DNA from: an uncultured Planctomycetota bacterium
GTDB lineage: Bacteria; Planctomycetota; Planctomycetia; Isosphaerales; Isosphaeraceae
DNA: 64,000 nt
Reading direction: 5' to 3'
NCBI GenBank assembly: GCA_963823665.1
Contig: CAWGMQ010000006.1
Coordinates: forward strand, 1,280,001-1,344,000
Shown here: positions 13,908 to 59,624 of the stretch, piece after piece
How the letters are laid out: each line of letters opens with the position of its first letter
Position numbering within the stretch: position 1 is the stretch's first letter
Notes under the pieces: generated by a model
Databases searched by the model: none
The model's input: only the letters and a program-made list of their open reading frames with translations
Told to the model about the DNA's origin: nothing
Translations under genes and position numbers: made by a program

Positions 13908-15559
13908 GAGGCTGTCATCTTTTGGCCGCGTTGCGGTAACTCGGCCGTTGGGCCTAGTCGGCTGTGATTCACCGCTTGGTCGCTCGGTTAGTGCCGCCGA
14001 TTCACGCCAGTTCTCCAATAGCCCAGCCGTTGACGCAAACGCGCTTTCCTATTTTGTCCCTTTTTTGCAAAGTACCGCTCATTCCGCCAGTTTGCCCATC
14101 GCTGGGCGCAGTCTCCCTGCGACAACCAGGTTGTGAGCAATTGCAAACAACAATGCGACGGCGCGGCAACGCGGTTGGCCACGCACGGGCATAAACCAGA
14201 ATCCTCGATTGCGAGCCTGGGCGTTGACCCACTCGGCTGTTTGGCCTCGCAGCCGGTAGATCAGCTTCGCGGCCTCGGTCCCCATTCGGATCCGCCAAGC
14301 GGCAACCGCTTCGCTGTCGCCCTTCTTTGCGGTGTAGGGATCTTCTCCATTTGCCTGTTTCTTTTTCTCGTCTCTGATCGGCCCGTATACGATGCAGCCG
14401 CGTTGGGCCGCCTGATCGATCGAGTCCTTGGTCGTGAAGCCACCGTCAACCAATGCCTCATCCGGAATTCGTTCGTAACGCTCCTCCAACTGGTCGAGCA
14501 TGGGCGGAAGTTCTTCGCCATCGTTCCCTGCGTTGGTCACCTCCACACCCACAATCACACCGCTTTCGGTGTCTGTTGTGAATTGAACGTTATATCCCGG
14601 CCGGAATCCTCCGTCTGGAAACTTCATGATCCTCGCGTCGGGGTCGGTGGTCGAAGCACGCGCTTCCCGCCCCTTGCGGCCGTAGGACTCGTCACGTTCG
14701 CGTTGCAGCTCCTCGCACTGCCGCATCGCTTCTTCGATCCGTTGCTGTCGCTTGTTGGCGGCACGCTCCCGCGCCGCTCGCTGCCGTCGAGTCAGCTCTG
14801 CTGTGTCCTCCTCGGCCAGTTTCTTCAGCGCCTCAACCTGCTCCTTCGCCGCTTTCAGGCACTCCTCCAGGCTACCGCGACGACGAAACGAGCTCTTGCC
14901 CGCGCTGGCACGCACTCTCATTCCGTCCTGAGCGACCCGGTCCATTTTCACCAACCCGGCATGGAGCAGGGTGCCCACGATCTGCGTGAGCAGTTCGTTC
15001 AACTTCTCGCCCCCACAAGCGAGGAAGTGGGACAACATGCTGTGGTTGACGGTTACGCCGCCGCACAGCCACTGGTACGGCAGACTCCCTTGGTTCTTTT
15101 CGCACAGCCGTTCGATTTCACGGGCGCTGCCGACTCCCTTCAATGTGGCGAAAACCCGCAATCCGACCAGCAAGCGCGGGTCGGTGGCATCTCGGCCGAC
15201 ATGTCGCTCGACGGCCTTGATCTCGCCGAGCCAGGCTTTCAGATCGAGCTTGCAGACCGCCGCCCAGACGACCCGGGCCGGATGGTCGGCCTCGAGCAAT
15301 TCATCGAGCGATGCCCAGCGCATCTCGATCTGGTCGCGTACGGGACACCGCAGCCGCGGCTTGCCAGTTGGCATCGACTGGGCAGCCTGGGCGGGAGAGG
15401 GCTGATCGGGCAAGTCTTCTGGGCTAAAGAGAGGAAGTGTCATGACGCTCGTCCTGCAACACCGGGGCTGCGTGGGGCTCATGCGGCGGACTACATGCAT
15501 GGTATTAGAACGTGAACACTATACAAAATCAACCCCAACGCCGAAAAAATCACAGCCTC
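13908..15559 (-). mobile_element. IS1182-family insertion sequence, copy 1
   Basis: Terminal IRs gaggctgtcatcttttgg / ccgaaaaaatcacagcctc; flanked by gga/gga (cggag if the IRs are read one base shorter). Second copy at 30253-31904. Confidence 0.9.
14079..15443 (-). CDS. IS1182-family DDE transposase
   Basis: LDELLEADHPARVV, GVGSAREIERLC, AQDGMRVRASAG, STTDPDARIMK, GYNVQ, LVDGGF, RGQTAEWVNA. Confidence 0.9.
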   Translation of the reverse strand: MTLPLFSPEDLPDQPSPAQAAQSMPTGKPRLRCPVRDQIEMRWASLDELLEADHPARVVWAAVCKLDLKAWLGEIKAVERHVGRDATDPRLLVGLRVFATLKGVGSAREIERLCEKNQGSLPYQWLCGGVTVNHSMLSHFLACGGEKLNELLTQIVGTLLHAGLVKMDRVAQDGMRVRASAGKSSFRRRGSLEECLKAAKEQVEALKKLAEEDTAELTRRQRAARERAANKRQQRIEEAMRQCEELQRERDESYGRKGREARASTTDPDARIMKFPDGGFRPGYNVQFTTDTESGVIVGVEVTNAGNDGEELPPMLDQLEERYERIPDEALVDGGFTTKDSIDQAAQRGCIVYGPIRDEKKKQANGEDPYTAKKGDSEAVAAWRIRMGTEAAKLIYRLRGQTAEWVNAQARNRGFWFMPVRGQPRCRAVALLFAIAHNLVVAGRLRPAMGKLAE

Positions 15560-30252: not shown

Positions 30253-31904
30253 GAGGCTGTCATCTTTTGGCCGCGTTGCGGTAACTCGGCCGTTGGGCCT
30301 AGTCGGCTGTGATTCACCGCTTGGTCGCTCGGTTAGTGCCGCCGATTCACGCCAGTTCTCCAATAGCCCAGCCGTTGACGCAAACGCGCTTTCCTATTTT
30401 GTCCCTTTTTTGCAAAGTACCGCTCATTCCGCCAGTTTGCCCATCGCTGGGCGCAGTCTCCCTGCGACAACCAGGTTGTGAGCAATTGCAAACAACAATG
30501 CGACGGCGCGGCAACGCGGTTGGCCACGCACGGGCATAAACCAGAATCCTCGATTGCGAGCCTGGGCGTTGACCCACTCGGCTGTTTGGCCTCGCAGCCG
30601 GTAGATCAGCTTCGCGGCCTCGGTCCCCATTCGGATCCGCCAAGCGGCAACCGCTTCGCTGTCGCCCTTCTTTGCGGTGTAGGGATCTTCTCCATTTGCC
30701 TGTTTCTTTTTCTCGTCTCTGATCGGCCCGTATACGATGCAGCCGCGTTGGGCCGCCTGATCGATCGAGTCCTTGGTCGTGAAGCCACCGTCAACCAATG
30801 CCTCATCCGGAATTCGTTCGTAACGCTCCTCCAACTGGTCGAGCATGGGCGGAAGTTCTTCGCCATCGTTCCCTGCGTTGGTCACCTCCACACCCACAAT
30901 CACACCGCTTTCGGTGTCTGTTGTGAATTGAACGTTATATCCCGGCCGGAATCCTCCGTCTGGAAACTTCATGATCCTCGCGTCGGGGTCGGTGGTCGAA
31001 GCACGCGCTTCCCGCCCCTTGCGGCCGTAGGACTCGTCACGTTCGCGTTGCAGCTCCTCGCACTGCCGCATCGCTTCTTCGATCCGTTGCTGTCGCTTGT
31101 TGGCGGCACGCTCCCGCGCCGCTCGCTGCCGTCGAGTCAGCTCTGCTGTGTCCTCCTCGGCCAGTTTCTTCAGCGCCTCAACCTGCTCCTTCGCCGCTTT
31201 CAGGCACTCCTCCAGGCTACCGCGACGACGAAACGAGCTCTTGCCCGCGCTGGCACGCACTCTCATTCCGTCCTGAGCGACCCGGTCCATTTTCACCAAC
31301 CCGGCATGGAGCAGGGTGCCCACGATCTGCGTGAGCAGTTCGTTCAACTTCTCGCCCCCACAAGCGAGGAAGTGGGACAACATGCTGTGGTTGACGGTTA
31401 CGCCGCCGCACAGCCACTGGTACGGCAGACTCCCTTGGTTCTTTTCGCACAGCCGTTCGATTTCACGGGCGCTGCCGACTCCCTTCAATGTGGCGAAAAC
31501 CCGCAATCCGACCAGCAAGCGCGGGTCGGTGGCATCTCGGCCGACATGTCGCTCGACGGCCTTGATCTCGCCGAGCCAGGCTTTCAGATCGAGCTTGCAG
31601 ACCGCCGCCCAGACGACCCGGGCCGGATGGTCGGCCTCGAGCAATTCATCGAGCGATGCCCAGCGCATCTCGATCTGGTCGCGTACGGGACACCGCAGCC
31701 GCGGCTTGCCAGTTGGCATCGACTGGGCAGCCTGGGCGGGAGAGGGCTGATCGGGCAAGTCTTCTGGGCTAAAGAGAGGAAGTGTCATGACGCTCGTCCT
31801 GCAACACCGGGGCTGCGTGGGGCTCATGCGGCGGACTACATGCATGGTATTAGAACGTGAACACTATACAAAATCAACCCCAACGCCGAAAAAATCACAG
31901 CCTC
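30253..31904 (-). mobile_element. IS1182-family insertion sequence, copy 2
   Basis: Same IRs and identical internal ORF translations as copy 1 (offset 16345). Confidence 0.9.
30424..31788 (-). CDS. IS1182-family DDE transposase
   Basis: Translation identical to 14079..15443. Confidence 0.9.
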   Translation of the reverse strand: MTLPLFSPEDLPDQPSPAQAAQSMPTGKPRLRCPVRDQIEMRWASLDELLEADHPARVVWAAVCKLDLKAWLGEIKAVERHVGRDATDPRLLVGLRVFATLKGVGSAREIERLCEKNQGSLPYQWLCGGVTVNHSMLSHFLACGGEKLNELLTQIVGTLLHAGLVKMDRVAQDGMRVRASAGKSSFRRRGSLEECLKAAKEQVEALKKLAEEDTAELTRRQRAARERAANKRQQRIEEAMRQCEELQRERDESYGRKGREARASTTDPDARIMKFPDGGFRPGYNVQFTTDTESGVIVGVEVTNAGNDGEELPPMLDQLEERYERIPDEALVDGGFTTKDSIDQAAQRGCIVYGPIRDEKKKQANGEDPYTAKKGDSEAVAAWRIRMGTEAAKLIYRLRGQTAEWVNAQARNRGFWFMPVRGQPRCRAVALLFAIAHNLVVAGRLRPAMGKLAE

Positions 31905-39246: not shown

Positions 39247-40042
39247 CGATTGCACCCGCGCGAGTTGAGCCCAGAGCCGAGCGGCCATCGACCGGCGTTG
39301 CCGAACTGGCTACATGTGTGGCTAGCCGGTGGGGTTCGACGATGGAAACCGAGCGAGCGAAGCGGCTGGCGGAATTTGTCGCTAGGGTTGGTGCGAACAT
39401 CCAAGGCGATGAGAAGGAAAGCCAGCCACGGATCGCTTGAACCCGCCAAAACGCTGGGTGTCTTTGCGTCAGGAAAAGCTCGAGAAAGGAGGAAGTGCCT
39501 CGAAACACAGAAACCTTTCATCGCGACCCTGCGGGTTAACGAATCCCGCCCGGCAGAGCCTGGCCGGCAGCCGGAAGCAAGTCTTGCGTGGGGAGGGGTG
39601 ACCCTCACTGCGAAGCGTAGACAGCGAGTCTCCATGCCATGCTATCGAGCCCCGAAATACTCATCGTGGGAGCCTCCGTTGTAGACACAAGCGGGGGCCG
39701 TGTCGACACGCCGCAATGGCCTGGCGTGTTCGGTCCTGCCGGGGTCCAAGAACATGGCGCAGGGACGCGAGGGTTGCTCGGGAACCTGAGAGCCCCATCC
39801 GTCTCCACTGACATTTCCGGCTCGGGATCCGGAATACCAACTCCCCGGCCCACGACCTCGCGTCGGGTCGCTGGGAGCGAACAGGACGCAAGGGTGGTAT
39901 CGCCACACGAAGGCAACGAAGTGCGGCGAAAGGGGCGGATGGGAGTCGGAGCGTCTCGTAGTACCGTTGAAGCCGGGGAACCACTCCGAGGGACCCGGTG
40001 GAGGGAAGGAGACGCCATGTCACACAACCGTTGGAGGGAAAC

Positions 40043-41395
40043 ATGGCGGGTGCATCGGAACCCGTGGACGTGTCCACGAAACAACAACGGATAGCGGAAC
40101 TCGCTCGGCGAAGCCCGGAGATGGGATTCACATCCCTGGGGCACTTCATCGACCTCGATTGGCTGCTCACAGCTTACTACCGGACCCGCCAAGACGGGGC
40201 GGTGGGCGTAGACGGACAAGATGGCGAGGCCTACGCAGCGAACCTGGTCCCGAACCTACGGTCGCTGCTGGAACGAGCCAAGTCCGGTACGTACCACGCA
40301 CCGCCTGTGCGGCGAGTGCATATCCCCAAGGCAGGCTCAGCGACCGAAACCCGGCCACTGGGAATCCCGACCTTCGAGGATAAAGTGCTCCAGCGTGCTG
40401 TCGTGATGGTTCTGGAGGCGATATACGAGCAGGACTTCAAGAACTGCTCGCATGGCTTCCGGCCCGAGCGATCGGCACACACTGCGTTAGAGAGCCTGTG
40501 GCAACAGACGATGAACATGAAGGGCGGATGGGTAGTGGATGTGGACATTCGTAAGTTCTTTGACACGATTGACCACGGCCATCTACGCGACTTCCTCAAG
40601 CGTCGGGTGCGAGACGGAGTGCTGCTCCGGCTCATCGGCAAATGGCTCAATGCGGGCGTCTTCGAGAACGGGTGCGTTACGCACCCCGAAATGGGGTCGC
40701 CACAAGGGGGTGTGATCAGCCCGATCCTTTCGAATATCTTCCTGCACTACGTGCTGGACGAGTGGTTCGAGCGGGAGGTTCAGCCTCGGATGATGGGCAG
40801 ATCGTTCTTGATCCGCTATGCGGACGACTTCGTCATGGTCTTCTCATGCGAGTCCGACGCACGGCGTGTGATGAATGTGTTGCCCAAACGCTTTGAGAAG
40901 TACGGCTTGACCATCCACCCGGACAAGACGCGGCTGGTGCCGTTCGAGCGGCCATCGGACCGTCCCAAACCGGAAGGCAGACCCACACGAACTCCACCAG
41001 GGACTTTCGACCTGCTGGCGTTCACCCATTACTGGGGTCGCTCCCGGCAGGGTCGCTGGGTGGTGAAGCGCAAGACGTCCAAAAGTCGATTTCGCCGCAG
41101 CCTGCGAACGTTGGCGGATTGGTGTCGCAAAAATCGCCATCAACCGCTCAAGGTGCAGCACCGGATACTAGGTCAGAAACTGCTAGGCCACTATGCCTAC
41201 TACGGAATCACCGGCAACTCCAAAATGTTGTCACGGTTTCGCAGTGGTGCCACCTGGCTCTGGCAGCACTGGCTGTCGCGCCGCGGGCGCGGCCGTCGGA
41301 TGACGTGGGATCGGTTCGCTCGTTTCCTGAAGCATAAACCGCTTCCGGCAGCGATCGCGATCCACTCGGTATGCCGTCTCGTAGCGAACAAGTGA
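40043..41395 (+). CDS. ltrA: Group II intron reverse transcriptase/maturase without endonuclease domain
   Basis: GAVGVDG, RPLGIPTFEDK, DIRKFFD, GSPQGGVISPILSNIFL, RYADD, GHYAYYGITGN. Confidence 0.93.
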   Translation: MAGASEPVDVSTKQQRIAELARRSPEMGFTSLGHFIDLDWLLTAYYRTRQDGAVGVDGQDGEAYAANLVPNLRSLLERAKSGTYHAPPVRRVHIPKAGSATETRPLGIPTFEDKVLQRAVVMVLEAIYEQDFKNCSHGFRPERSAHTALESLWQQTMNMKGGWVVDVDIRKFFDTIDHGHLRDFLKRRVRDGVLLRLIGKWLNAGVFENGCVTHPEMGSPQGGVISPILSNIFLHYVLDEWFEREVQPRMMGRSFLIRYADDFVMVFSCESDARRVMNVLPKRFEKYGLTIHPDKTRLVPFERPSDRPKPEGRPTRTPPGTFDLLAFTHYWGRSRQGRWVVKRKTSKSRFRRSLRTLADWCRKNRHQPLKVQHRILGQKLLGHYAYYGITGNSKMLSRFRSGATWLWQHWLSRRGRGRRMTWDRFARFLKHKPLPAAIAIHSVCRLVANK

Positions 41396-41442
41396 CATGA
41401 CGAGCCGGGTGCCTGAATTGGGCAAGCCCGGATCTGTGGGAG

Positions 41443-43862
41443 TCGCGAAACGAAGCTGCGGATGAGTCTGTTATGACTGGATTTGCAACCAGGACATAAC
41501 CCGATGTACGACCACCGGAACCCTACCAGGACGTGCGGCCGGAGCAATCCGACCGTGCGAAGCTCTTGGGACAACGTAACCTCACCTTCGGGTGGTTGGA
41601 TATCCCGTGAGGGAATCCGGCGACTGCGAACGCCAATGCGGTCGGGGGCCAGGGGTGGATGGCATGGCTAATCCAGGTGAACTGCCGATAAACGTCGTGA
41701 GATCCAACAAGCCAAAGGCGCTGAGAGGCTTGAACCAAAAAGGTACGTGGCCAGGTACAGTGGGATTTCCCATCCCCTGTCGTCGTCATCCGAGCCACCG
41801 GCGGAGAGGCAGAGCCTAAACCATCCGTGATTCATCCGTGGAACGTGGTAAGCCCGTCGCCCTCCCTTCGGGGTAGGACCGTCGTAAGGCGTCGCCGATG
41901 GGGCGGCGGGTGGAGGATGAGGGAGCAAGCCAATGCCGTTCGGTAGTCGATCGGATAGAGGGTGAGTCCTCCCACGGACGACATCCCCTCACCGCGAAAG
42001 CGGTGCCGACTTCCCTCAGGTGTTCCGTCACGAGAGAACCTTGGCCAACCGACTCAGGGAGACAAGCAGATATGTCGGCGGCAGAAATGCTTGCTGGTGC
42101 GGCTCCCGAGCTTACGCCCGACTGGCACTCCATCGAATGGAAGAAAGTCTGGCGCACAGTCCGTCGGCTCCAGGCGCGTATCGTGAAGGCTGTTGCGGAG
42201 GGCAGATGGAATAAGGTCAAGGCTCTGGTTTATCTGCTCACGCACTCGTTCAGTGGCCGGGCCCTGGCCATTTTGCGAGTCATCAGTAATTCGGGTGCGA
42301 AGACTCCCGGTGTGGACGGAGTTCTCTGGAACACACCGGAAGCCAAGTCGGCTGCTTTCAGCACTCTGCGTCGGCACGGTTACCAACCGCAACCGCTCCG
42401 CCGGGTGTACATTCCCAAAAGCAACGGCAAGCGACGTCCTCTCGGAATTCCCACCATGTCAGATCGAGCCATGCAGGCATTATACTTGCTAGGCCTCGAT
42501 CCCATTGCGGAATCTCGAGCCGACGGCCATTCCTATGGCTTTCGGCTGGAACGTCGTTGTGCCGACGCCCTGGAACAATCTCATATTGTCTTGGGTAATC
42601 GGAGCGGTCCAGCATGGATTCTCGAAGGGGACATCAAAGCTTGCTTTGATCGCATCAGTCATGACTGGCTCTTGACGCACGTCCCCATGGACCGGCAGTT
42701 GCTCGGGCAATGGCTGAAAGTGGGTTTCCTGGAGAAGCACGCCTGGTTCGCCACCACGGAAGGAACACCTCAAGGCGGGATCATTTCACCCGTCCTGGCG
42801 AATTGGACTCTGGATGGACTGCAACGGCTGTTGGCGGAACAGTTCGCCGAGAAGCACGGGCGACAACGGAAGTTTAAAGTCCACCTGGTCCGCTATGCGG
42901 ATGACTTCTTGATCACGGGCATCTCAAAGGAACTCCTCCGTGACCAAGTGCAACCTCTCGTGGCTCATTTCTTGAAGGAACGCGGCTTGGAACTTTCCCA
43001 CGAGAAAACCCAGATCACGCATGTGGAGGATGGCTTCGATTTCTTGGGGCAGAATGTGCGACGCTATCGCTGCGGCAAGGTGTTCACCAAGCCGTCCTTG
43101 CGAAACGTGAAGACGTTCTTGAACAAGATACAGGAAACGATCGACGGCTCGGGCAGCCTAACGGCAGGAGAGATGATCTGGCGTTTGAATCAGCAGATCA
43201 AGGGCTGGACCATGTACCACCGTTACGCGGCGAGCAAGCGCACTTTTACGTACGTGGATCACCGGATTTTCCAGAAATTGTGGCGTTGGTGTCGACGACG
43301 GCACCAGAACAAAGGCCGGAGGTGGATCAAGGAGAAATACTTCCAGCAAGACGGTTACCGCCACTGGGTCTTCACCGGTACGCTGTTTGACCAGAAAGGC
43401 CAAGGCCGGCCGATCCAGTTGATGGAAGCAGCCAAAGTGAAGATCATTCGTTATGTGAAGATCCGGAGCGACGTGAATCCCTACGATCCGAAGTGGGAAC
43501 TGTACCTGGAAGCACGACTGGGTTGGCAACTGAGCCAAACGCTGGCAGGTCGGGGTCGGATCGAATACTTATGGAAGGAACAAGAGGGACGATGCGTGGT
43601 CTGTGGTCAACCGCTGCGGATCGCAGAGGAAGACTTGCATCTCCACCATCGCATCTGGCGCAGCCGGGGCGGTTCTGGCACAGCCGACAACCTGGAGTTG
43701 TTGCATGCCAACTGTCATCGGCAGATCCATGTCCAAGAACGACTGACGAAAGCGGCCGCGTCCTGCGAGGGGCGTTCGTGAAGGCTTGAGCTGCATGAAG
43801 GGAAACTTTCACGTGCAGTTCTGAGGGGAGGGGGTGGCGGTAACGTCACCTCCTTACCCGGC
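41443..43862 (+). mobile_element. Group II intron B (chloroplast-like class), nested in intron A
   Basis: Removing 41443-43862 restores A's DVI. EBS2 AGATCC at 41700-41705, EBS1 TTCCCA at 41767-41772, DV at 43788-43821, DVI ending ttacccggc. Confidence 0.88.
42072..43781 (+). CDS. ltrA: Group II intron RT/maturase with C-terminal HNH endonuclease
   Basis: N-terminal [11 protein letters not shown]...[26 protein letters not shown]...HHR...GG...NL.LLHANCH. Confidence 0.95.
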
Positions 43863-44113
43863 CCTTGGGGGAGCGATCCCCCAAGGCGACCCGGCGAAAC
43901 CCGTGGCGATCCTCGAAGCGGTCGACGCAATGAGCGTCGAACAAATCGGCCCGATGTCGGCGGAGACAGTTGAAGCGGGGTTGGATCACAAGCGATTCAT
44001 TGAATCACCAGGCGGATGGTCCGTCGGACCAAGCGCTTTTTTTGGTATGATGGCGGTCGCAGTAGTTATCCAACCAGCACCTTCGACGCGTCCCTCTCTC
44101 AGGACCTTCAACG

Positions 44114-47140: not shown

Positions 47141-47224
47141 GCGTCCGCGAACAGTTGATCGTTCTCGATGCCCATCGCTCGTGCCGTGTCGAACACCTGA
47201 GTGGTCGGCTGAATTCAGGGATGT

Positions 47225-47360
47225 CAGACACCCACCTTTTGCGGAGCGTCGGACACGCGCCGTGTGCGCGTTCGAAATGACCAGAGGCCGTGGTTCTGCG
47301 CCGAACGTTCGAGGCGCGAATGAAAGGATGCGGGGGACCGTGACAAAAGGGTGGGTGTCT
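47225..47360. repeat. Inverted repeat pair (REPIN-like); the right arm is the intron C target
   Basis: cagacacccaccttttg (47225-47241) vs caaaagggtgggtgtct (47344-47360). Confidence 0.65.
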
Positions 47361-48092
47361 TTGCGTCAGGAAAGCTCGAGAAAGGAGGAAGTGCCTCGAA
47401 ACACAGAAACCTTTCATCGCGACCCTGCGGGTTAACGAATCCCGCCCGGCAGAGCCTGGCCGGCAGCCGGAAGCAAGTCTTGCGTGGGGAGGGGTGACCC
47501 TCACTGCGAAGCGTAGACAGCGAGTCTCCATGCCATGCTATCGAGCCCCGAAATACTCATCGTGGGAGCCTCCGTTGTAGACACAAGCGGGGGCCGTGTC
47601 GACACGCCGCAATGGCCTGGCGTGTTCGGTCCTGCCGGGGTCCAAGAACATGGCGCAGGGACGCGAGGGTTGCTCGGGAACCTGAGAGCCCCATCCGTCT
47701 CCACTGACATTTCCGGCTCGGGAACCGGAATACCAACTCCCCGGCCCACGACCCCGCGTCGGGTCGCTGGGAGCGAACAAGACGCAAGGGTGGTATCGCC
47801 AAACGAAGGCAACGAAGTGCGGCGAAATGGGCGGACGGGAGTCGGAGTGCTCCGTAGTAGCAGTGAAGCGGGGGAATGGGCCCTCCCAGACCCTGTGGAG
47901 CGAAGGGGGTACCGTGTCGCGGACTGGAAGCCGGAACCACGCCGAGGGCATTGGACCTCAGAGCGCGTCACCGCGAGGCGACCAGATCGTGTGAGGGACA
48001 GCGACGCCGCGACATGACGAGCCGGATGCCTTAATTGGGCACGTCCGGATCAGTGGGAGCCCTGGCGGAGCGATCCGCCAGGGCGACCCGGC
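47361..48092 (+). ncRNA. ORF-less group II intron C (satellite of intron A)
   Basis: 47361-~47847 is nearly identical to 39464-~39951. DIV is about 100 nt (47914-48015), DV at 48019-48051, intact DVI ending gcgacccggc. Confidence 0.88.
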
Positions 48093-54179: not shown

Positions 54180-55103
54180 TTAACGCTTCGTTGTGGTCTT
54201 GCCTCCTCCCTTTCCGCTGGCGTTGGAGCCAGATGGCGCCTTGGCTGGTTTTGAATCTGGTGGGTTCTCTTCCGACCCGGAGGGCGCTTTGGCTGGTTTT
54301 GAATTCGAACCACCATGCTCAGAGCCGGAGGGCGCTTTGGCTGGTTTTGAATCTTCAAACCCGTTTCCGCCCGAAGCCGATTGGTGCCGCAGGCGGTAAC
54401 TTCGGCCCTCCAATCGCACGAGCTCGGCATGATGCAGGAATCGATCCAAGATCGCCGTGGCACTCGGCACATCCCCGAGAAGCTTTCCCCAATCCTCGAG
54501 CGGACGGTTCGATGTCATCATCGTTGACCGTGTCTCATACCGCCGCATCACGACCTCGAAGAGACATTCACCGGAACGCCTCGGCAATTGCTTCATTCCC
54601 ATGTCGTCGATGATCAACAACTCGGGCTTCAGGTACATCGTCAGCATCTTGTCCTCCTGCCCCAACACCTGATCATGCAGGAAGTCCCGGACCAGGTCGA
54701 AGACCGAGCGGTAAAGAACCGTGTAACCGGCCTTGACGGCTTGATACCCGATCGCTTGTACGAGATGGCTCTTTCCGAGGCCGGGCGGTCCCAGCCAGAG
54801 CACGTCGCGCCCTTCGCGGAGGAACCGACAGCTCGCCAAGTCGTACACCTGCTTGCGGGGGATCGACGGGTTGAACGACCAGTCGAAGTCTTCCAACGAC
54901 TTCCGCTCGCGAAACTCAGCCGCTTTGAACCGTCGCTGGAATTGGCGATCGGCTCGCACCGCCAGCTCGTCTTGAAGGATCAGCTCAAGGAACTCGCTGT
55001 GGCTGAGGCCGTGGCCAGCGGCCTCCTGTAGGCGAATCTCCAGGCTCTCCAAGAGTCCGGAGAGCCGTAGTTGCCTCAATACATTTCTCAGTGGTTCATT
55101 CAT
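54180..55103 (-). CDS. istB: IS21 helper ATPase
   Basis: GPPGLGKSHL, LLIIDDMG, MTSNRPLEDWG, AILDRFLHH. Confidence 0.95.
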   Translation of the reverse strand: MNEPLRNVLRQLRLSGLLESLEIRLQEAAGHGLSHSEFLELILQDELAVRADRQFQRRFKAAEFRERKSLEDFDWSFNPSIPRKQVYDLASCRFLREGRDVLWLGPPGLGKSHLVQAIGYQAVKAGYTVLYRSVFDLVRDFLHDQVLGQEDKMLTMYLKPELLIIDDMGMKQLPRRSGECLFEVVMRRYETRSTMMTSNRPLEDWGKLLGDVPSATAILDRFLHHAELVRLEGRSYRLRHQSASGGNGFEDSKPAKAPSGSEHGGSNSKPAKAPSGSEENPPDSKPAKAPSGSNASGKGGGKTTTKR

Positions 55104-55182
55104 GGAGAAAACTCCTGGTGTGGTGTGGAAAATGTCGTGCTCGATCTCGATCGCCGATCACAGAATCAAAATGTCATCTCCG

Positions 55183-55251
55183 TCCCTCCCGCCTTCGCCA
55201 TCGCCTCGCCCTCACTTGAACTGGGCGAGGCGATGGCGAAGGTGGGAGGGA
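55183..55251. other. 29-bp-stem hairpin between istA and istB
   Basis: tccctcccgccttcgccatcgcctcgccc, 11-nt loop, gggcgaggcgatggcgaaggtgggaggga; one non-Watson-Crick position. Confidence 0.85.
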
Positions 55252-55393
55252 GCATCCCTCTTGCCGAGCCGGAGCTGAGCCCCGTCCCCTCTTTTTCGCC
55301 GGAAACTCGGTAGCCACTGCAACGTTGTTTGCACCGTGACCGGCGGAGGTCTGCCAAGTCGATTCAGGCACTCCCGCTCAAAGCAACTCTGAT

Positions 55394-56974
55394 TCATGAG
55401 TTGTTCCCCTCGTATCGAGATTGGAATGCGTCGCGGACAAACTGGCCATATTCACTCATTGGTCGGATCATAGGATGCTCGTTCATGAATGGCAGCAACT
55501 CTTGCTTGGGTCCCTGGCGCTTCAGGAGCGCACGGATTGTCCGGAGGCGATACTCGCCGTAACCGTGCGCAATTTCGCAAGCGTGATCGATTGCCGAGGC
55601 GAGATGCCGGCTGGAAAGGTTCAAAAGGCCGATCAACACTCGCACTCCCTCGACTCCGCGGGCTCGGATCATCGCCTCTGCCCAAGCGGTGCTCTTGGGT
55701 CCCAGCCGAGTGGTCACTCTGCGCAGAAGCCAGGCTGCCCCTTTCTCGACCCCGCTGATCTTATTGGGGTGAATCAGTTCAGGCGGTGTGCTGAAACGAC
55801 CTGGTTCCTTCCTGAGATGCACGGCGATCTTCTCCATCCGATCGTTGTAGATCGACACCAGGCGGCTGTCCCAGCGCACCCAGACGTCCCGGTCCCGGTA
55901 TTCCGGCGGCACCGCATAGTAGGCCCGCTTGACCTCAACATGGCCATCGCGGTGGACAGTGCGGCGGCCCTCGTGGAACGACGGGAATAGACCCAATGGC
56001 AACGGTACCAGTGCCTCGCGCTCGACCTCGGCGAAATGCTTGCCGACCTGGCGACGGGTGGTGCCATGGATCCGGGTGTCAGCGACGGTCAGCTCCCAGT
56101 TCAGTAGGAAAGCATTCTGCTCCTCCAGGCTGGGGAATCGCCGTGCCTTGAGAGCGTTGCTCTGGACGTAGTCGACGCTTTTTTCGACCTTTCCCTTGTG
56201 CCGAGGTGTCCGGGGTCGCGTGGGCCAGAAGACAAAGCCGTAGTGCTCTCCGAAGGAGCGGACCTTGGGATTGAGCTCGGGATCAAACCAGTCGGCCTTC
56301 GTCACGGCGGCCTTCAGGTTATCCAGAACCAACCGTCTCGGTACGCCACCGAAGTGGCGAAAGGCACTTTCAATGCAGCGAAGGAATTCATCGGTGGTCT
56401 GGCGATAGACGGCCTCGGAGTAGGCCTTGCGAGAGTGGGACAGCACGATGCGGAAGACATGGGTTCTGCGGCGCTTGCCGTCGGTTGTGTAAACCGGAGC
56501 ACCAGTGCCGAAGTCGACCTGGGCCTCCTCCCCTGGCTCACACTCAAGGCGCCGGAAGGGAAGCTCTTGTACCGGCTCGAGGCGGCGAACAAAGCGACGG
56601 ACGGTGTAGTAGCTCCCCTGGAAGCCGTGTTCGGACGAGAGATCCTGGTAAATGCGTTGGGCGCTCAGGCCCTGGTTAAGCTTGGACTGAATGATGTCTC
56701 GCCAAGGCTCGCAATCGCTGAGTCGACCGCGAGCTTGGCTGCCGCGGTCGCTGGCCGAAGCGAGTGTCGGGACAGCCGCGCTTGCTGCAATTTCAGGGCC
56801 GCTCGAGCCGGAGGGCGCAATGGCTGGTTTTGGCGCCTCTCTGGCCTGCTTGAGGTAGCGAGCGACCGTCTCACGATTGATGTCCAGCTCGATGGCGATT
56901 TGGCGCTGGGACCATCCCCTGCGATGCAGGGACAAGATAGCGTCTATCATGGCCACTTTGAGGCAATTCGACAT
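55394..56974 (-). CDS. istA: IS21 DDE transposase
   Basis: N-terminal HTH, PGEEAQVDFG, FGGVPRRLVLDNLKAAV, KGKVEKSV, HGTTRR. Confidence 0.95.
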   Translation of the reverse strand: MSNCLKVAMIDAILSLHRRGWSQRQIAIELDINRETVARYLKQAREAPKPAIAPSGSSGPEIAASAAVPTLASASDRGSQARGRLSDCEPWRDIIQSKLNQGLSAQRIYQDLSSEHGFQGSYYTVRRFVRRLEPVQELPFRRLECEPGEEAQVDFGTGAPVYTTDGKRRRTHVFRIVLSHSRKAYSEAVYRQTTDEFLRCIESAFRHFGGVPRRLVLDNLKAAVTKADWFDPELNPKVRSFGEHYGFVFWPTRPRTPRHKGKVEKSVDYVQSNALKARRFPSLEEQNAFLLNWELTVADTRIHGTTRRQVGKHFAEVEREALVPLPLGLFPSFHEGRRTVHRDGHVEVKRAYYAVPPEYRDRDVWVRWDSRLVSIYNDRMEKIAVHLRKEPGRFSTPPELIHPNKISGVEKGAAWLLRRVTTRLGPKSTAWAEAMIRARGVEGVRVLIGLLNLSSRHLASAIDHACEIAHGYGEYRLRTIRALLKRQGPKQELLPFMNEHPMIRPMSEYGQFVRDAFQSRYEGNNS

Positions 56975-57835
56975 GGTGCGGCTCCAGGAAAGGGGTCTCC
57001 CGAAAGCCTACATGTCGAATCCGCGTCTCCTCATTAGTGGCTGGTTTTGAAGCGCCCCATGGTGGCTGGTTTTGAGCGCCCGCTGTCATGCTACAAATGA
57101 GGCTTCACTATGAGCGATCAATCCGCTGGCGGACTTTCGTCTGTGATTTTTCCTTGCTGGAATCAGCTCCCCACGGCGCCTGCGCCGTGCGCACATACAG
57201 AATGAATTCTGTCGATTGATCGATATTATCGCTGGAATCGGGAATCTTTGTGAAGATATCCCGGTCGACGGCGCGTCCAGTCTGCAAAGTCGTCGCATAC
57301 TGTAGATGAGCGGGTGCGCGGCGCCGCGGCGCCATTTTGCCGCGCGCGGTCAAAAGGCTGACGGCACCTCTGTCGTGTTTCGGAGGCACCGCCAAAGTCC
57401 CGAGGGATTCCTTAACTCGGGATCGGGTTCTCGGAGTCGGAACGATATATGAGAGTCAGATCAAGATCTGAATTTGGATTTCACCGCCGCCAGTTTACAC
57501 TAGTGTACGGATGCTGGACGACCCCCTAGATATTGCCACTTATTGCCATTTTTTTCGAGGAATGCGGCGATTGCTTTGGGTGGTGTGGCTGCTCTGTAAG
57601 TGCAATAAGCGTAATCAAATCGGAATAGCGCGAGGCGTTCTTACTCGATGGCGAAATTCTCATGGCAAAGGTCAGCAAGAATTGCCATTCTCAATCGCGG
57701 GTGTTGTTCACTATGTTTTTGGGCTGTATTTTCACTGCAGTCGGAGGGAGATTCTCGGTGCCTGGTGGGGATGGAATTCCCCTCGCGCAATCCCCCCTCC
57801 GCTGCGTTCGGGGGCTGTGGGGCTGGGGCTCGCGC

Positions 57836-59399
57836 CTTTGTCCTTACCATCATTTTCTGGTGGTCATAGGTGCGCTTCCCCGGCCTTTTCCCGGCTTTTC
57901 TCGCTTCGCACCTGGTAATATCAAGCCAAGCCACACGCTGAGGTGGGGGGGAGGGATCGCGTTTCAACCGCCGGAGCCTCGGATGGACGCCTTTCTTTCA
58001 GATGCGCAGACTTGGGCCATGACCCAATTCGCCACCACTGATCTTCATGACGAACGCCGTACCAAACGACTCGTTCTGTTGGCAACGCAGATCGCCGCAG
58101 ATCCGTCCGGGAGTTTTCCTCAGCAAACCGAATCCTGGAATGATCTGAGGGCCGCATACAATTTCTTCGATTGTGAGGACGTCACCTTTCAAGCGATCGC
58201 CAGTCACCATTGGGAGCTTACCAAGAAGACAGCAGGTGAGCGTCAATTGATCATCGCAGACACGACCGAAATCGATTACGGGCCGTGCCGACAGGTCACA
58301 GGTCTTTCGCCGGTTGGTTCGGGTATCGGACAAGGCTTTCACCTTCACTCGGGTTTGATGGTTTCCCCCGAAGACGACCGGGTTCACGGCTTGGCCGGAC
58401 AACTGATCTATCATCGTCAGCGCGTTCGTAAGGGGGAGACGCGGACCGAACGGTTGCAGCGTGACGATCGCGAATCACAGATCTGGGGTGATCTTGTCAT
58501 CCAAATGGGATCCCCGCCGTCGGGAACCTCCTGGATTCACGTAGTTGATCGTGGCGCCGACGACTTTGAGTTTTTCTATCACTGCCAGCAGACAGAAACC
58601 GAATGGGTGGCGCGAGCCAAGAGCCTGATCCGGATCATTATCACGCCGGAGAGCGGGGAAACGCCGCTGAAAGCCTACTTAGGGACCCTGCCGCGGGCTG
58701 GATGTTACACGCTCAATCTGCGGGCTCGCCCCAAAGCACCGGCTCGGACGGCCAAGCTGGTGGTCGCCATCGGGGCCTTACGGATGCCGACGCCGAAACT
58801 CAAAAGCCCATTTCTGAAGCAGGTCAAGCCCGCGGCGATCCCCATGTGGGTCGTCTGGGTGCGCGAGGTAGATGCTCCCGACGGAGTGGAGGCGATCGAG
58901 TGGGTGCTTTACACTTCTTTGCTGGTGGAGGATTTTGAAGATGCTATGGCGATCGTGGGGTACTACGGGAAGAGGTGGCTAATCGAGGAGTGGCACAAGG
59001 TCCTGAAAACAGGCTTTCAGGTAGAACGTCGCCAGCTCAAGACGTGCGATCGTCTCGAAGCCATGATGGGATTGATGTCTGTGGAAGCACTGCGGTTGTT
59101 CCAGTTGAAGGGAATGGCGCGGACAGCTCCCGAGCAGCCTGCGACCGAGGTGGTACCGCCCAAATACGTGATGATGCTGAAGGTGGTGCGCAGATTGACG
59201 CCCACGACAATATTAACTGCGGGAGGATTTTTTCGGGAGTTGGCCAAGCTGGGAGGGTTCCTGGGCCGCCGCCACGATGGGGAGCCAGGTTGGATGACGA
59301 TCTGGCGGGGTTGGGACAAGCTGCAGATCATGATCCGGGCGCCGAGGCTATCATCGACGTATCTTCATCGGTATGATGAAGATGATGGTAAGGACAAAG
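57836..59399 (+). mobile_element. IS4-family (IS50/Tn5-like) insertion sequence
   Basis: IRs ctttgtccttaccatcat / atgatggtaaggacaaag; direct repeat gctcgcgc at 57828-57835 and 59400-59407. Confidence 0.9.
57983..59375 (+). CDS. IS4/Tn5-type transposase (probable 1-bp slip near 59340)
   Basis: WA..QF...LHDERRTKRL, IADTT, VVDRGAD, YGKRWLIEEWHKVLKTG, AKLGGFLGRRHDGEPGWMTIWRGW. Adding one G gives RGAEAIIDVSSSV* inside the IR. Confidence 0.9.
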
Positions 59400-59624
59400 G
59401 CTCGCGCCCCAGGCTTTATGATGTCGCCCCGGTTCGGGGCTGGGGGAGAACGCGGCGGGATTATCCACAGTTGCGCCGCGTCCGGCCATTTCGTTGCGGG
59501 CCGCGAATGAAGATCGATCAGTCGTTTGCGCTCGGTTCTTCCGGAGGAAACATGCACGATTCTACACGGATTAACTGTTTTTCGATCATTGATTGATTTT
59601 GGGATGATCAAGTGGCACAGGTAG

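Follow-up and report, generated by a model that had tools for sequence, protein, structure and literature searches.

A CL1-like group II intron inserted at one site in domain VI of other group II introns in an Isosphaeraceae genome

Introduction

A 64,000-nt stretch from an uncultured Isosphaeraceae bacterium (assembly GCA_963823665.1, contig CAWGMQ010000006.1, positions 1,280,001 to 1,344,000; hereafter the window) contains three group II introns: A (from 39464), B (41443-43862), which lies inside A, and C (47361-48092), which lacks an open reading frame (ORF). How did one complete intron come to sit in the 3′ region of another: by a single chance event, or by exon-binding sites (EBSs) set to a sequence that other introns share? 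Twintrons and site-specific homing into introns are established for bacteria and archaea in the reports consulted (PMC4424553, PMC2504315, PMC2882425, PMC4649490). Here we describe the contacts, copies and relatives of B, which very probably favour the latter answer.

Results

B splits domain VI of an otherwise intact intron

Rfam searches matched A and C to D1-D4-6 models and B to D1-D4-7 and Intron_gpII. B interrupts A 8 nt past domain V (DV). An initial annotation of the window had placed the 5′ end of A at 39464, its DV at 41402-41434, B at 41443-43862 and the rest of A at 43863-43895, and these coordinates were correct. So was its prediction that excision of B restores an intact A: an uninterrupted A copy elsewhere in the genome (L024), which differs from the window A at one position over 1979 nt, has exactly the sequence expected after removal of B and fixes the A|B junction. 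The same junction is spanned by two public contigs from soil runs (X1 record 6 and X3 record 28); these runs may include the source sample. A and B form a group II twintron: once the inner intron, itself complete, is taken out, the outer one is whole again. An assembly artefact is ruled out by seven loci with differing flanks, the empty allele, other genomes and the spanning contigs.

The landing point itself had been given as the DV/DVI junction. On RF00029, DVI of the empty A allele starts at ∼41437 (33 bits, below the gathering score of 40), and this Rfam-model alignment places the insertion 5-6 nt within the 5′ strand of DVI, between the two pairs immediately above the bulged branch A, rather than at the junction. 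We retain the name DV/DVI site for this position.

EBSs of B, mapped by covariation, pair with the interrupted host

Contacts were determined by covariation across the domain I of 60 distinct relatives. For exon positions -1 to -6, complementarity peaks at 41767-41772 (66-81% Watson-Crick), as expected from the proposed EBS1 TTCCCA; positions -9 to -13 are best complemented by 41701-41705 (75-86% Watson-Crick), -14 by 41699 (88%) and +1 by 41806 (89% Watson-Crick). All four pair types occur at each EBS column, and the EBS was the top covarying column for 13/13 exon positions. The six-base EBS2 AGATCC of the initial annotation had to be trimmed: GATCC covaries, while its leading A41700 is invariant in 57 relatives and faces T at -8 in just 19/57; an EBS2a at 41699 was added. 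The A site forms 12 Watson-Crick pairs and one G-U pair with B, as opposed to eight Watson-Crick pairs, one G-U and four mismatches for the equivalent site in B itself. When the 5′ 458 nt of B were folded alone, EBS1 did fall in a loop of the minimum free energy structure; the fold was not significant (z -1.4).

The 14-mer target with T at -8 occurs eight times in the 16.5-Mb genome, always in host introns, and seven of these sites are occupied; the reversed 14-mer used as a control occurs 0 times in the same genome.

Seven identical copies of B reside in diverged hosts

The genome holds seven full copies of B, with 0 differences in 2420 nt, and one 3′ fragment. Host DV precedes 7/7 full copies, and host DVI follows 8/8 when the fragment is included. 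The hosts comprise four ORF-bearing A copies, one C-type intron and two members of a D-type family 71% like A. The four invaded A copies differ by 3-12 positions in ∼1979 and enclose an invariant B. Identical inner introns in diverged hosts indicate independent insertions, an argument also made for Thermosynechococcus elongatus (PMC2882425).

Uninvaded hosts were also found, counted from 40 of 85 candidates that were scored and from exact-pattern matches, so that distant hosts may be missed. Five of them (L028, L022, L048, L043 and L047) have a mismatch in an intron-binding site (IBS2 or IBS1) or at +1. Eighteen empty sites fit all canonical contacts: 14 with A at -8 (13 C copies and one fragment), three non-intron sites with C at -8, and L024. 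At -1, the base forms a G-C pair within DVI in 18/18 distinct uninterrupted hosts. Two invaded hosts (L002 and L003) instead have an A-C mismatch there and join an A-type DVI to a C- or D-type 5′ part; these hosts look chimeric and point to exchange of DVI at B. One segment of the genome (C6:911026-916201; L028, L044 and L005) carries an IBS2-mutated empty A copy followed by a D-type intron holding B. Five introns of other classes are also present (L017-L021); the two that were scored (L017 and L020) show three mismatches to the B EBSs and are uninvaded.

The DV/DVI site is retained in B-type introns of other genomes

Relatives were collected by a protein scan (66 genome loci and the best 80 of 187 metagenome loci) and by DNA scans of 120 same-family genomes, which added further ones. 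The closest named relatives come mostly from Isosphaeraceae and other Planctomycetota metagenome-assembled genomes. Most relatives at 80-89% amino-acid identity have a domain I ∼62% like that of B, other EBSs and other targets; 0/76 of their distinct junctions were flagged as DV sites, by a pattern that misses TTA linkers and with inspection by eye of part of the 76. Introns with a B-type domain I behaved differently. Tabulation of their 5′ exons placed 20/28 distinct junctions at the DV/DVI site (18 flagged, plus L268 and L296 by inspection; the seven loci of the source genome count as four of the 28), and the three closest among the best 80 metagenome relatives all lie there. Together with the 7/7 full copies above, this supports the earlier proposal that B homes into a conserved intron site by EBS/IBS pairing.

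In a tree of intron-encoded proteins, B, L059 and L229-L231 form a clade (SH-like support 99) with 5/5 members at the site, sister to the non-intron insertion L240 (trees were built by FastTree, excluding protein rows of < 430 aa or without a readable exon). The EBSs of L230 match its own site at 12/12 positions, its EBS1 following host variants. Genome G461 combines a B-type domain I (87%) with a protein 58% identical to that of B, and most copies are at the site; this mismatch argues that ribozyme and ORF have been exchanged. The G461 intron L313 and the inner intron of L296 are mosaics of this kind, with a B-type domain I on the different CL1 protein lineage (58% to B). One ectopic copy of the G461-type intron (L205) lies in non-intron DNA, where an IBS-like sequence is still present. 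In G437, G435, G439, G406 and G523, 3′ fragments abut host DVI. Internally deleted, ORF-less B-type derivatives occupy the same DVI position in L165 (G438) and L203 (G405). The junction pattern was found in 5/120 same-family genomes, two hits (L388 and L389) being chance matches; among plasmid records, none reached 80% coverage of the junction query. L059 is labelled Actinomycetota and L106 Acidobacteriaceae, labels that may reflect transfer or a misbinned contig.

Three B-type introns (L268, L296 and L258) occupy the same position in hosts that are CL1 introns and resemble B at about 83-88%. The L268 EBSs (EBS2 GAACT, EBS1 TCCCCT) match their own site and the equivalent site of B at 12/12 positions; on the A site they form seven Watson-Crick and two G-U pairs with three mismatches. 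The initial annotation had held that B avoids itself. This is true of B's own EBSs (three mismatches of 12), and self-avoidance as a lineage-wide trait is rejected by these three introns. The poor self-match of B seems to be a side effect of DV sequences that differ between classes. The domain I tree would fit a single origin of DVI targeting followed by its loss in a sister lineage.

An unrelated 756-nt intron without an ORF of reverse transcriptase (RT) length (L266:2438-3193) occupies the same DVI position in another CL1 host, a convergent use of the site. A different intron-like element with a GTGCG start lies right after the GAAA loop of DV in two CL1 hosts (L235:2029 and L264:1237). The 5′ junction of L286 and the 3′ junction of L245 reveal a B-clade lineage that interrupts the RT ORF of introns from its own clade at the boundary of the RRLQARI and VKA codons, which is a second intron-targeting lineage. 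In three genomes (L360, L165 and L146), the junction at which host 3′ halves start is palindromic and falls in the end of DV, and L165 has two host 3′ ends fused head to head.

B is CL1/IIB1-like and its host probably belongs to class E

The B protein contains RVT_N, RVT_1, GIIM and HNH domains and scores above the TIGR04416 cut-off. Among PDB entries, it scored 606 bits with 6ME0, the T. elongatus intron protein, versus 137 with LtrA and ≤ 134 with IIC proteins. IIB1 introns use EBS1, a 5-bp EBS2, EBS2a and EBS3, according to PMC8643678, and B carries this set: a 6-nt EBS1, a 5-nt EBS2, EBS2a to -14 and EBS3 to +1. From these features, with protein affinity taken from the PDB search scores, B can be classed as CL1/subgroup IIB1-like.

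Host A encodes an RT-X protein without endonuclease domain (En) and has a 5-nt loop in DV, features that PMC3753933 describes as common to classes E and F. Class F variety g2 was rejected because A has the motif YADD and g2 FADD; variety g3 was rejected, A being 31% identical to Ni.ha.I1, which fits a different Rfam model. A probably belongs to class E, a label drawn from sequence motifs and the exclusion of these two varieties. The features are compiled in Table 1.

Table 1. Intron features and their coordinates in the window.
Feature	Position	Strand	Evidence or remark
5′ part of outer intron A (DI to DV plus the initial 5-6 nt of DVI); lacks En; class E probable	39464..41442	+	RF02005 at 39540-39754; empty allele L024
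A ORF: RT-maturase, 450 aa, YADD, without endonuclease; intact, upstream of B	40043..41395	+	
Probable A EBS1 AGACAC, complementing the last 6 nt preceding A and C	39683..39688	+	Complementarity; loop in RF02005 alignment
A DV; final 6 nt = IBS2a (-14) and IBS2 (-13 to -9) for B	41402..41434	+	
Linker between A DV and DVI, then the first bases of the DVI 5′ strand; IBS1 = 41437-41442; -8 = T41435	41435..41442	+	
Complete inner intron B (2420 nt), CL1/IIB1-like; one of 7 identical genomic copies	41443..43862	+	
B EBS2a (41699), invariant A (41700), EBS2 GATCC (41701-41705)	41699..41705	+	Covariation, 57 relatives; PMC8643678
B delta (41766) and EBS1 TTCCCA (41767-41772), hairpin loop	41766..41772	+	Fold; covariation
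B EBS3 (G), partner of +1 C	41806..41806	+	89% Watson-Crick, 4 pair types, 35 relatives
B ORF encoding a 569-aa RT-maturase-HNH protein	42072..43781	+	Best PDB match 6ME0, E 7e-181
B DV and DVI; target-equivalent position after 43829	43788..43862	+	RF00029, 63.4 bits
Remaining A DVI with branch A and 3′ end	43863..43895	+	Rfam-model alignment of empty allele
ORF-less intron C, A family, uninvaded; EBS/IBS score equal to that of A but A at -8 (site 48059/48060)	47361..48092	+	
∼150-bp dispersed element (inverted ends), entered at its end by A and C	47218..47360	.	

Discussion

How B may reach and leave its target

Collectively, B is very probably an active or very recently active CL1/IIB1-type retroelement with EBSs matched to a conserved sequence of a different intron class. 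Its target, the 3′ strand of DV and the basal DVI helix, is the most conserved DNA stretch of the host class. Sequence comparison establishes the 13 RNA-DNA contacts, the single landing site, repeated recent insertion into already dispersed hosts and retention of the site over related introns and genomes, including a change of host class accompanied by compensatory EBS changes. By analogy to known IIB1 biology, the lariat-protein particle of B would reverse-splice into the sense strand, and the HNH domain would cut the other strand and prime reverse transcription. T at -8 could act as an extra determinant, either paired with A41700 or read by the protein. B would then be co-transcribed with its host. 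The host RT gene, upstream of B, is left intact. Since B splits the branch helix, it must presumably splice first, restoring the host exactly, and such restored hosts could give rise to new B-free copies, i.e. fresh targets. The structure soundly predicts that A splices only after B excision, and PMC4748821 describes the basal DVI helix as important for branching. Group IIE introns can splice by hydrolysis in vitro (PMC3753933), which leaves a bypass of B excision conceivable.

Several observations weigh against the proposal that B homes actively into this site. B begins with TCGCG and ends with GC in 7/7 copies, off the GUGYG...AY consensus; close relatives start with TTGCG, GTGCG or CTGCG, and PMC7923331 records a CL1 intron with UUGCG...GU ends. 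Thirteen C copies score like A on canonical pairing yet stay empty, which canonical EBS pairing does not explain. The base at -8 does separate the two groups (7/8 sites with T occupied versus 0/13 C copies with A; Fisher p 7e-5, a value overstated because the C copies are kin, with about five sub-lineages and up to 25 differences in 700 nt), and a block by A at -8 is not absolute, because the L165 and L146 junctions of other genomes have it. L024 is an empty A with a perfect site, which fits B-free new A copies or an A that is simply still uninvaded. In G405, 14/14 pattern-matched hosts are empty, and the invaded host (L203) is outside the pattern. Eight of the 28 B-type junctions are off-site: five of the sister lineage with other EBSs, the ectopic L205, and two truncated or degenerate ones. 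The junction pattern was seen in 0/400 genomes of other families in the phylum and in 0 viral contigs. Two RNA-library runs yielded contigs of relatives only; one run (X15) contains an uninterrupted A-like 3′ end, perhaps an empty DNA allele, as such contigs cannot separate spliced RNA from empty alleles.

Chance, exchange or selection

One insertion by chance could have been followed by spread of the A::B composite as a unit, through twintron retrohoming or DNA duplication. Four of the seven B copies do reside in near-identical A hosts, and mobility of a composite was floated as a possibility in PMC2882425. Against this, the hosts vary around an invariant B and include C-type and 71%-identical D-type introns, other genomes have other hosts, and B splits the branch helix; host diversity largely refutes this explanation, and we consider it scarcely tenable. 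Nearly as improbable is movement of B among hosts by recombination or gene conversion instead of EBS-guided retrohoming. That exchange at or through B occurs is evident from the chimeric-looking L002 and L003 with their broken G-C pair at -1; it does not account for EBS-IBS covariation over hosts and host classes, for precise junctions where hosts share little flank, or for the IBS-like sequence at the ectopic L205.

A further explanation shares the mechanism that we favour and differs on the word 'specialised' alone: EBSs may have drifted to match an abundant, tolerated multicopy sequence without selection for intron targeting. EBSs change freely over the clade, the sister lineage left the DVI site, and the unrelated ORF-less L266 intron uses the same position, as with any abundant safe site. 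However, one EBS set has been kept by two protein lineages and by ribozymes that are 83-87% alike, and in L268 three EBS bases changed without any shift of the exact structural position. We regard drift as rather unlikely. More tentatively, and with some doubt, the DV/DVI site may be an arena in which introns evolve as parasites and hosts: B-type introns would switch host class by EBS retuning at a constant position, hosts would escape by a single T-to-A change at -8, the first linker base, this escape would let the ORF-less C family outnumber A while it uses the A protein, still expressed, and B would serve as a hinge for DVI swaps between host introns.

Relation to known twintrons

Homing into introns is known, at the YADD motif and in domain IV; the DV/DVI landing site differs. 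The Euglena chloroplast psbF twintron, which Copertino and Hallick are said to have described in 1991, reportedly has its insertion in domain V. Its inner intron, like B, is reported to break the 3′ catalytic region, so that it must splice first; unlike A and B, the two are degenerate, non-mobile organellar introns and are not known to form a homing lineage. The YADD-motif homing introns B.th.I3, M.a.I5, UA.I3 and P.l.I2, as presented by Tourasse & Kolsto (2008; PMC2504315), resemble B in that their lineage, too, has EBSs directed at a motif conserved in other retroelements, with twintrons as the result. They are endonuclease-less and interrupt the host ORF, whereas B has an HNH domain, spares the host ORF and breaks up the branch helix. 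With its DV/DVI target and HNH domain, B is not a member of that lineage. The T. elongatus intron proteins are the closest PDB family of the B protein, and TeI3 (F3) within TeI4 (F1) likewise shows identical inner and diverged outer copies, which arose by independent insertion into a single site (Mohr et al., 2010; PMC2882425). As described there, TeI3 is ORF-less, lies in domain IV of close kin and is possibly bypassed, whereas the autonomous B enters introns of another class and splits DVI. Trichodesmium Tr.e.I7/I8 shares with B an inner IIB1 intron with its own ORF, and sequential splicing is documented there (Pfreundt & Hess, 2015; PMC4649490); it differs, in that account, as a single locus in a protein-coding gene, with the inner intron in domain I. 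Plant, red-algal and euglenid twintrons have domain I or IV sites, or none, in the reports consulted (PMC7049729, PMC4476101, PMC3534033).

In the literature searched, with most subscription papers and the Calgary database outside its scope, we found no mobile lineage described as homing into DV/DVI. B extends the few known intron-homing strategies (RT motif, domain IV) by one landing site and offers, within a single genome, an autonomous and multicopy example that comes with its own controls. As described, published intron pipelines drop or miss such nests (PMC4028801, PMC8919778), so nested introns are probably undercounted. If B does throttle host mobility or shuffle domain VI, it would provide a testable case of introns limiting or reshaping one another, and a natural reagent against other introns.

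Other features of the window

A and C land in a ∼150-bp dispersed element resembling a miniature inverted-repeat transposable element (MITE) or a repetitive extragenic palindromic (REP) sequence, also present at 39450-39463. At least 33 empty ends of this element occur at further sites in the genome, and its ends are often tandemly duplicated. The element, A and B are three nesting levels outside genes. The window also carries two near-identical DDE transposase genes, an IS21-like pair and a Tn5-like transposase (14079-15500, 30424-31845, 54180-56974 and 57662-59596), as well as several paralogous leucine-rich repeat (LRR), WD40 and carboxypeptidase-regulatory-domain genes, some of them apparently broken.

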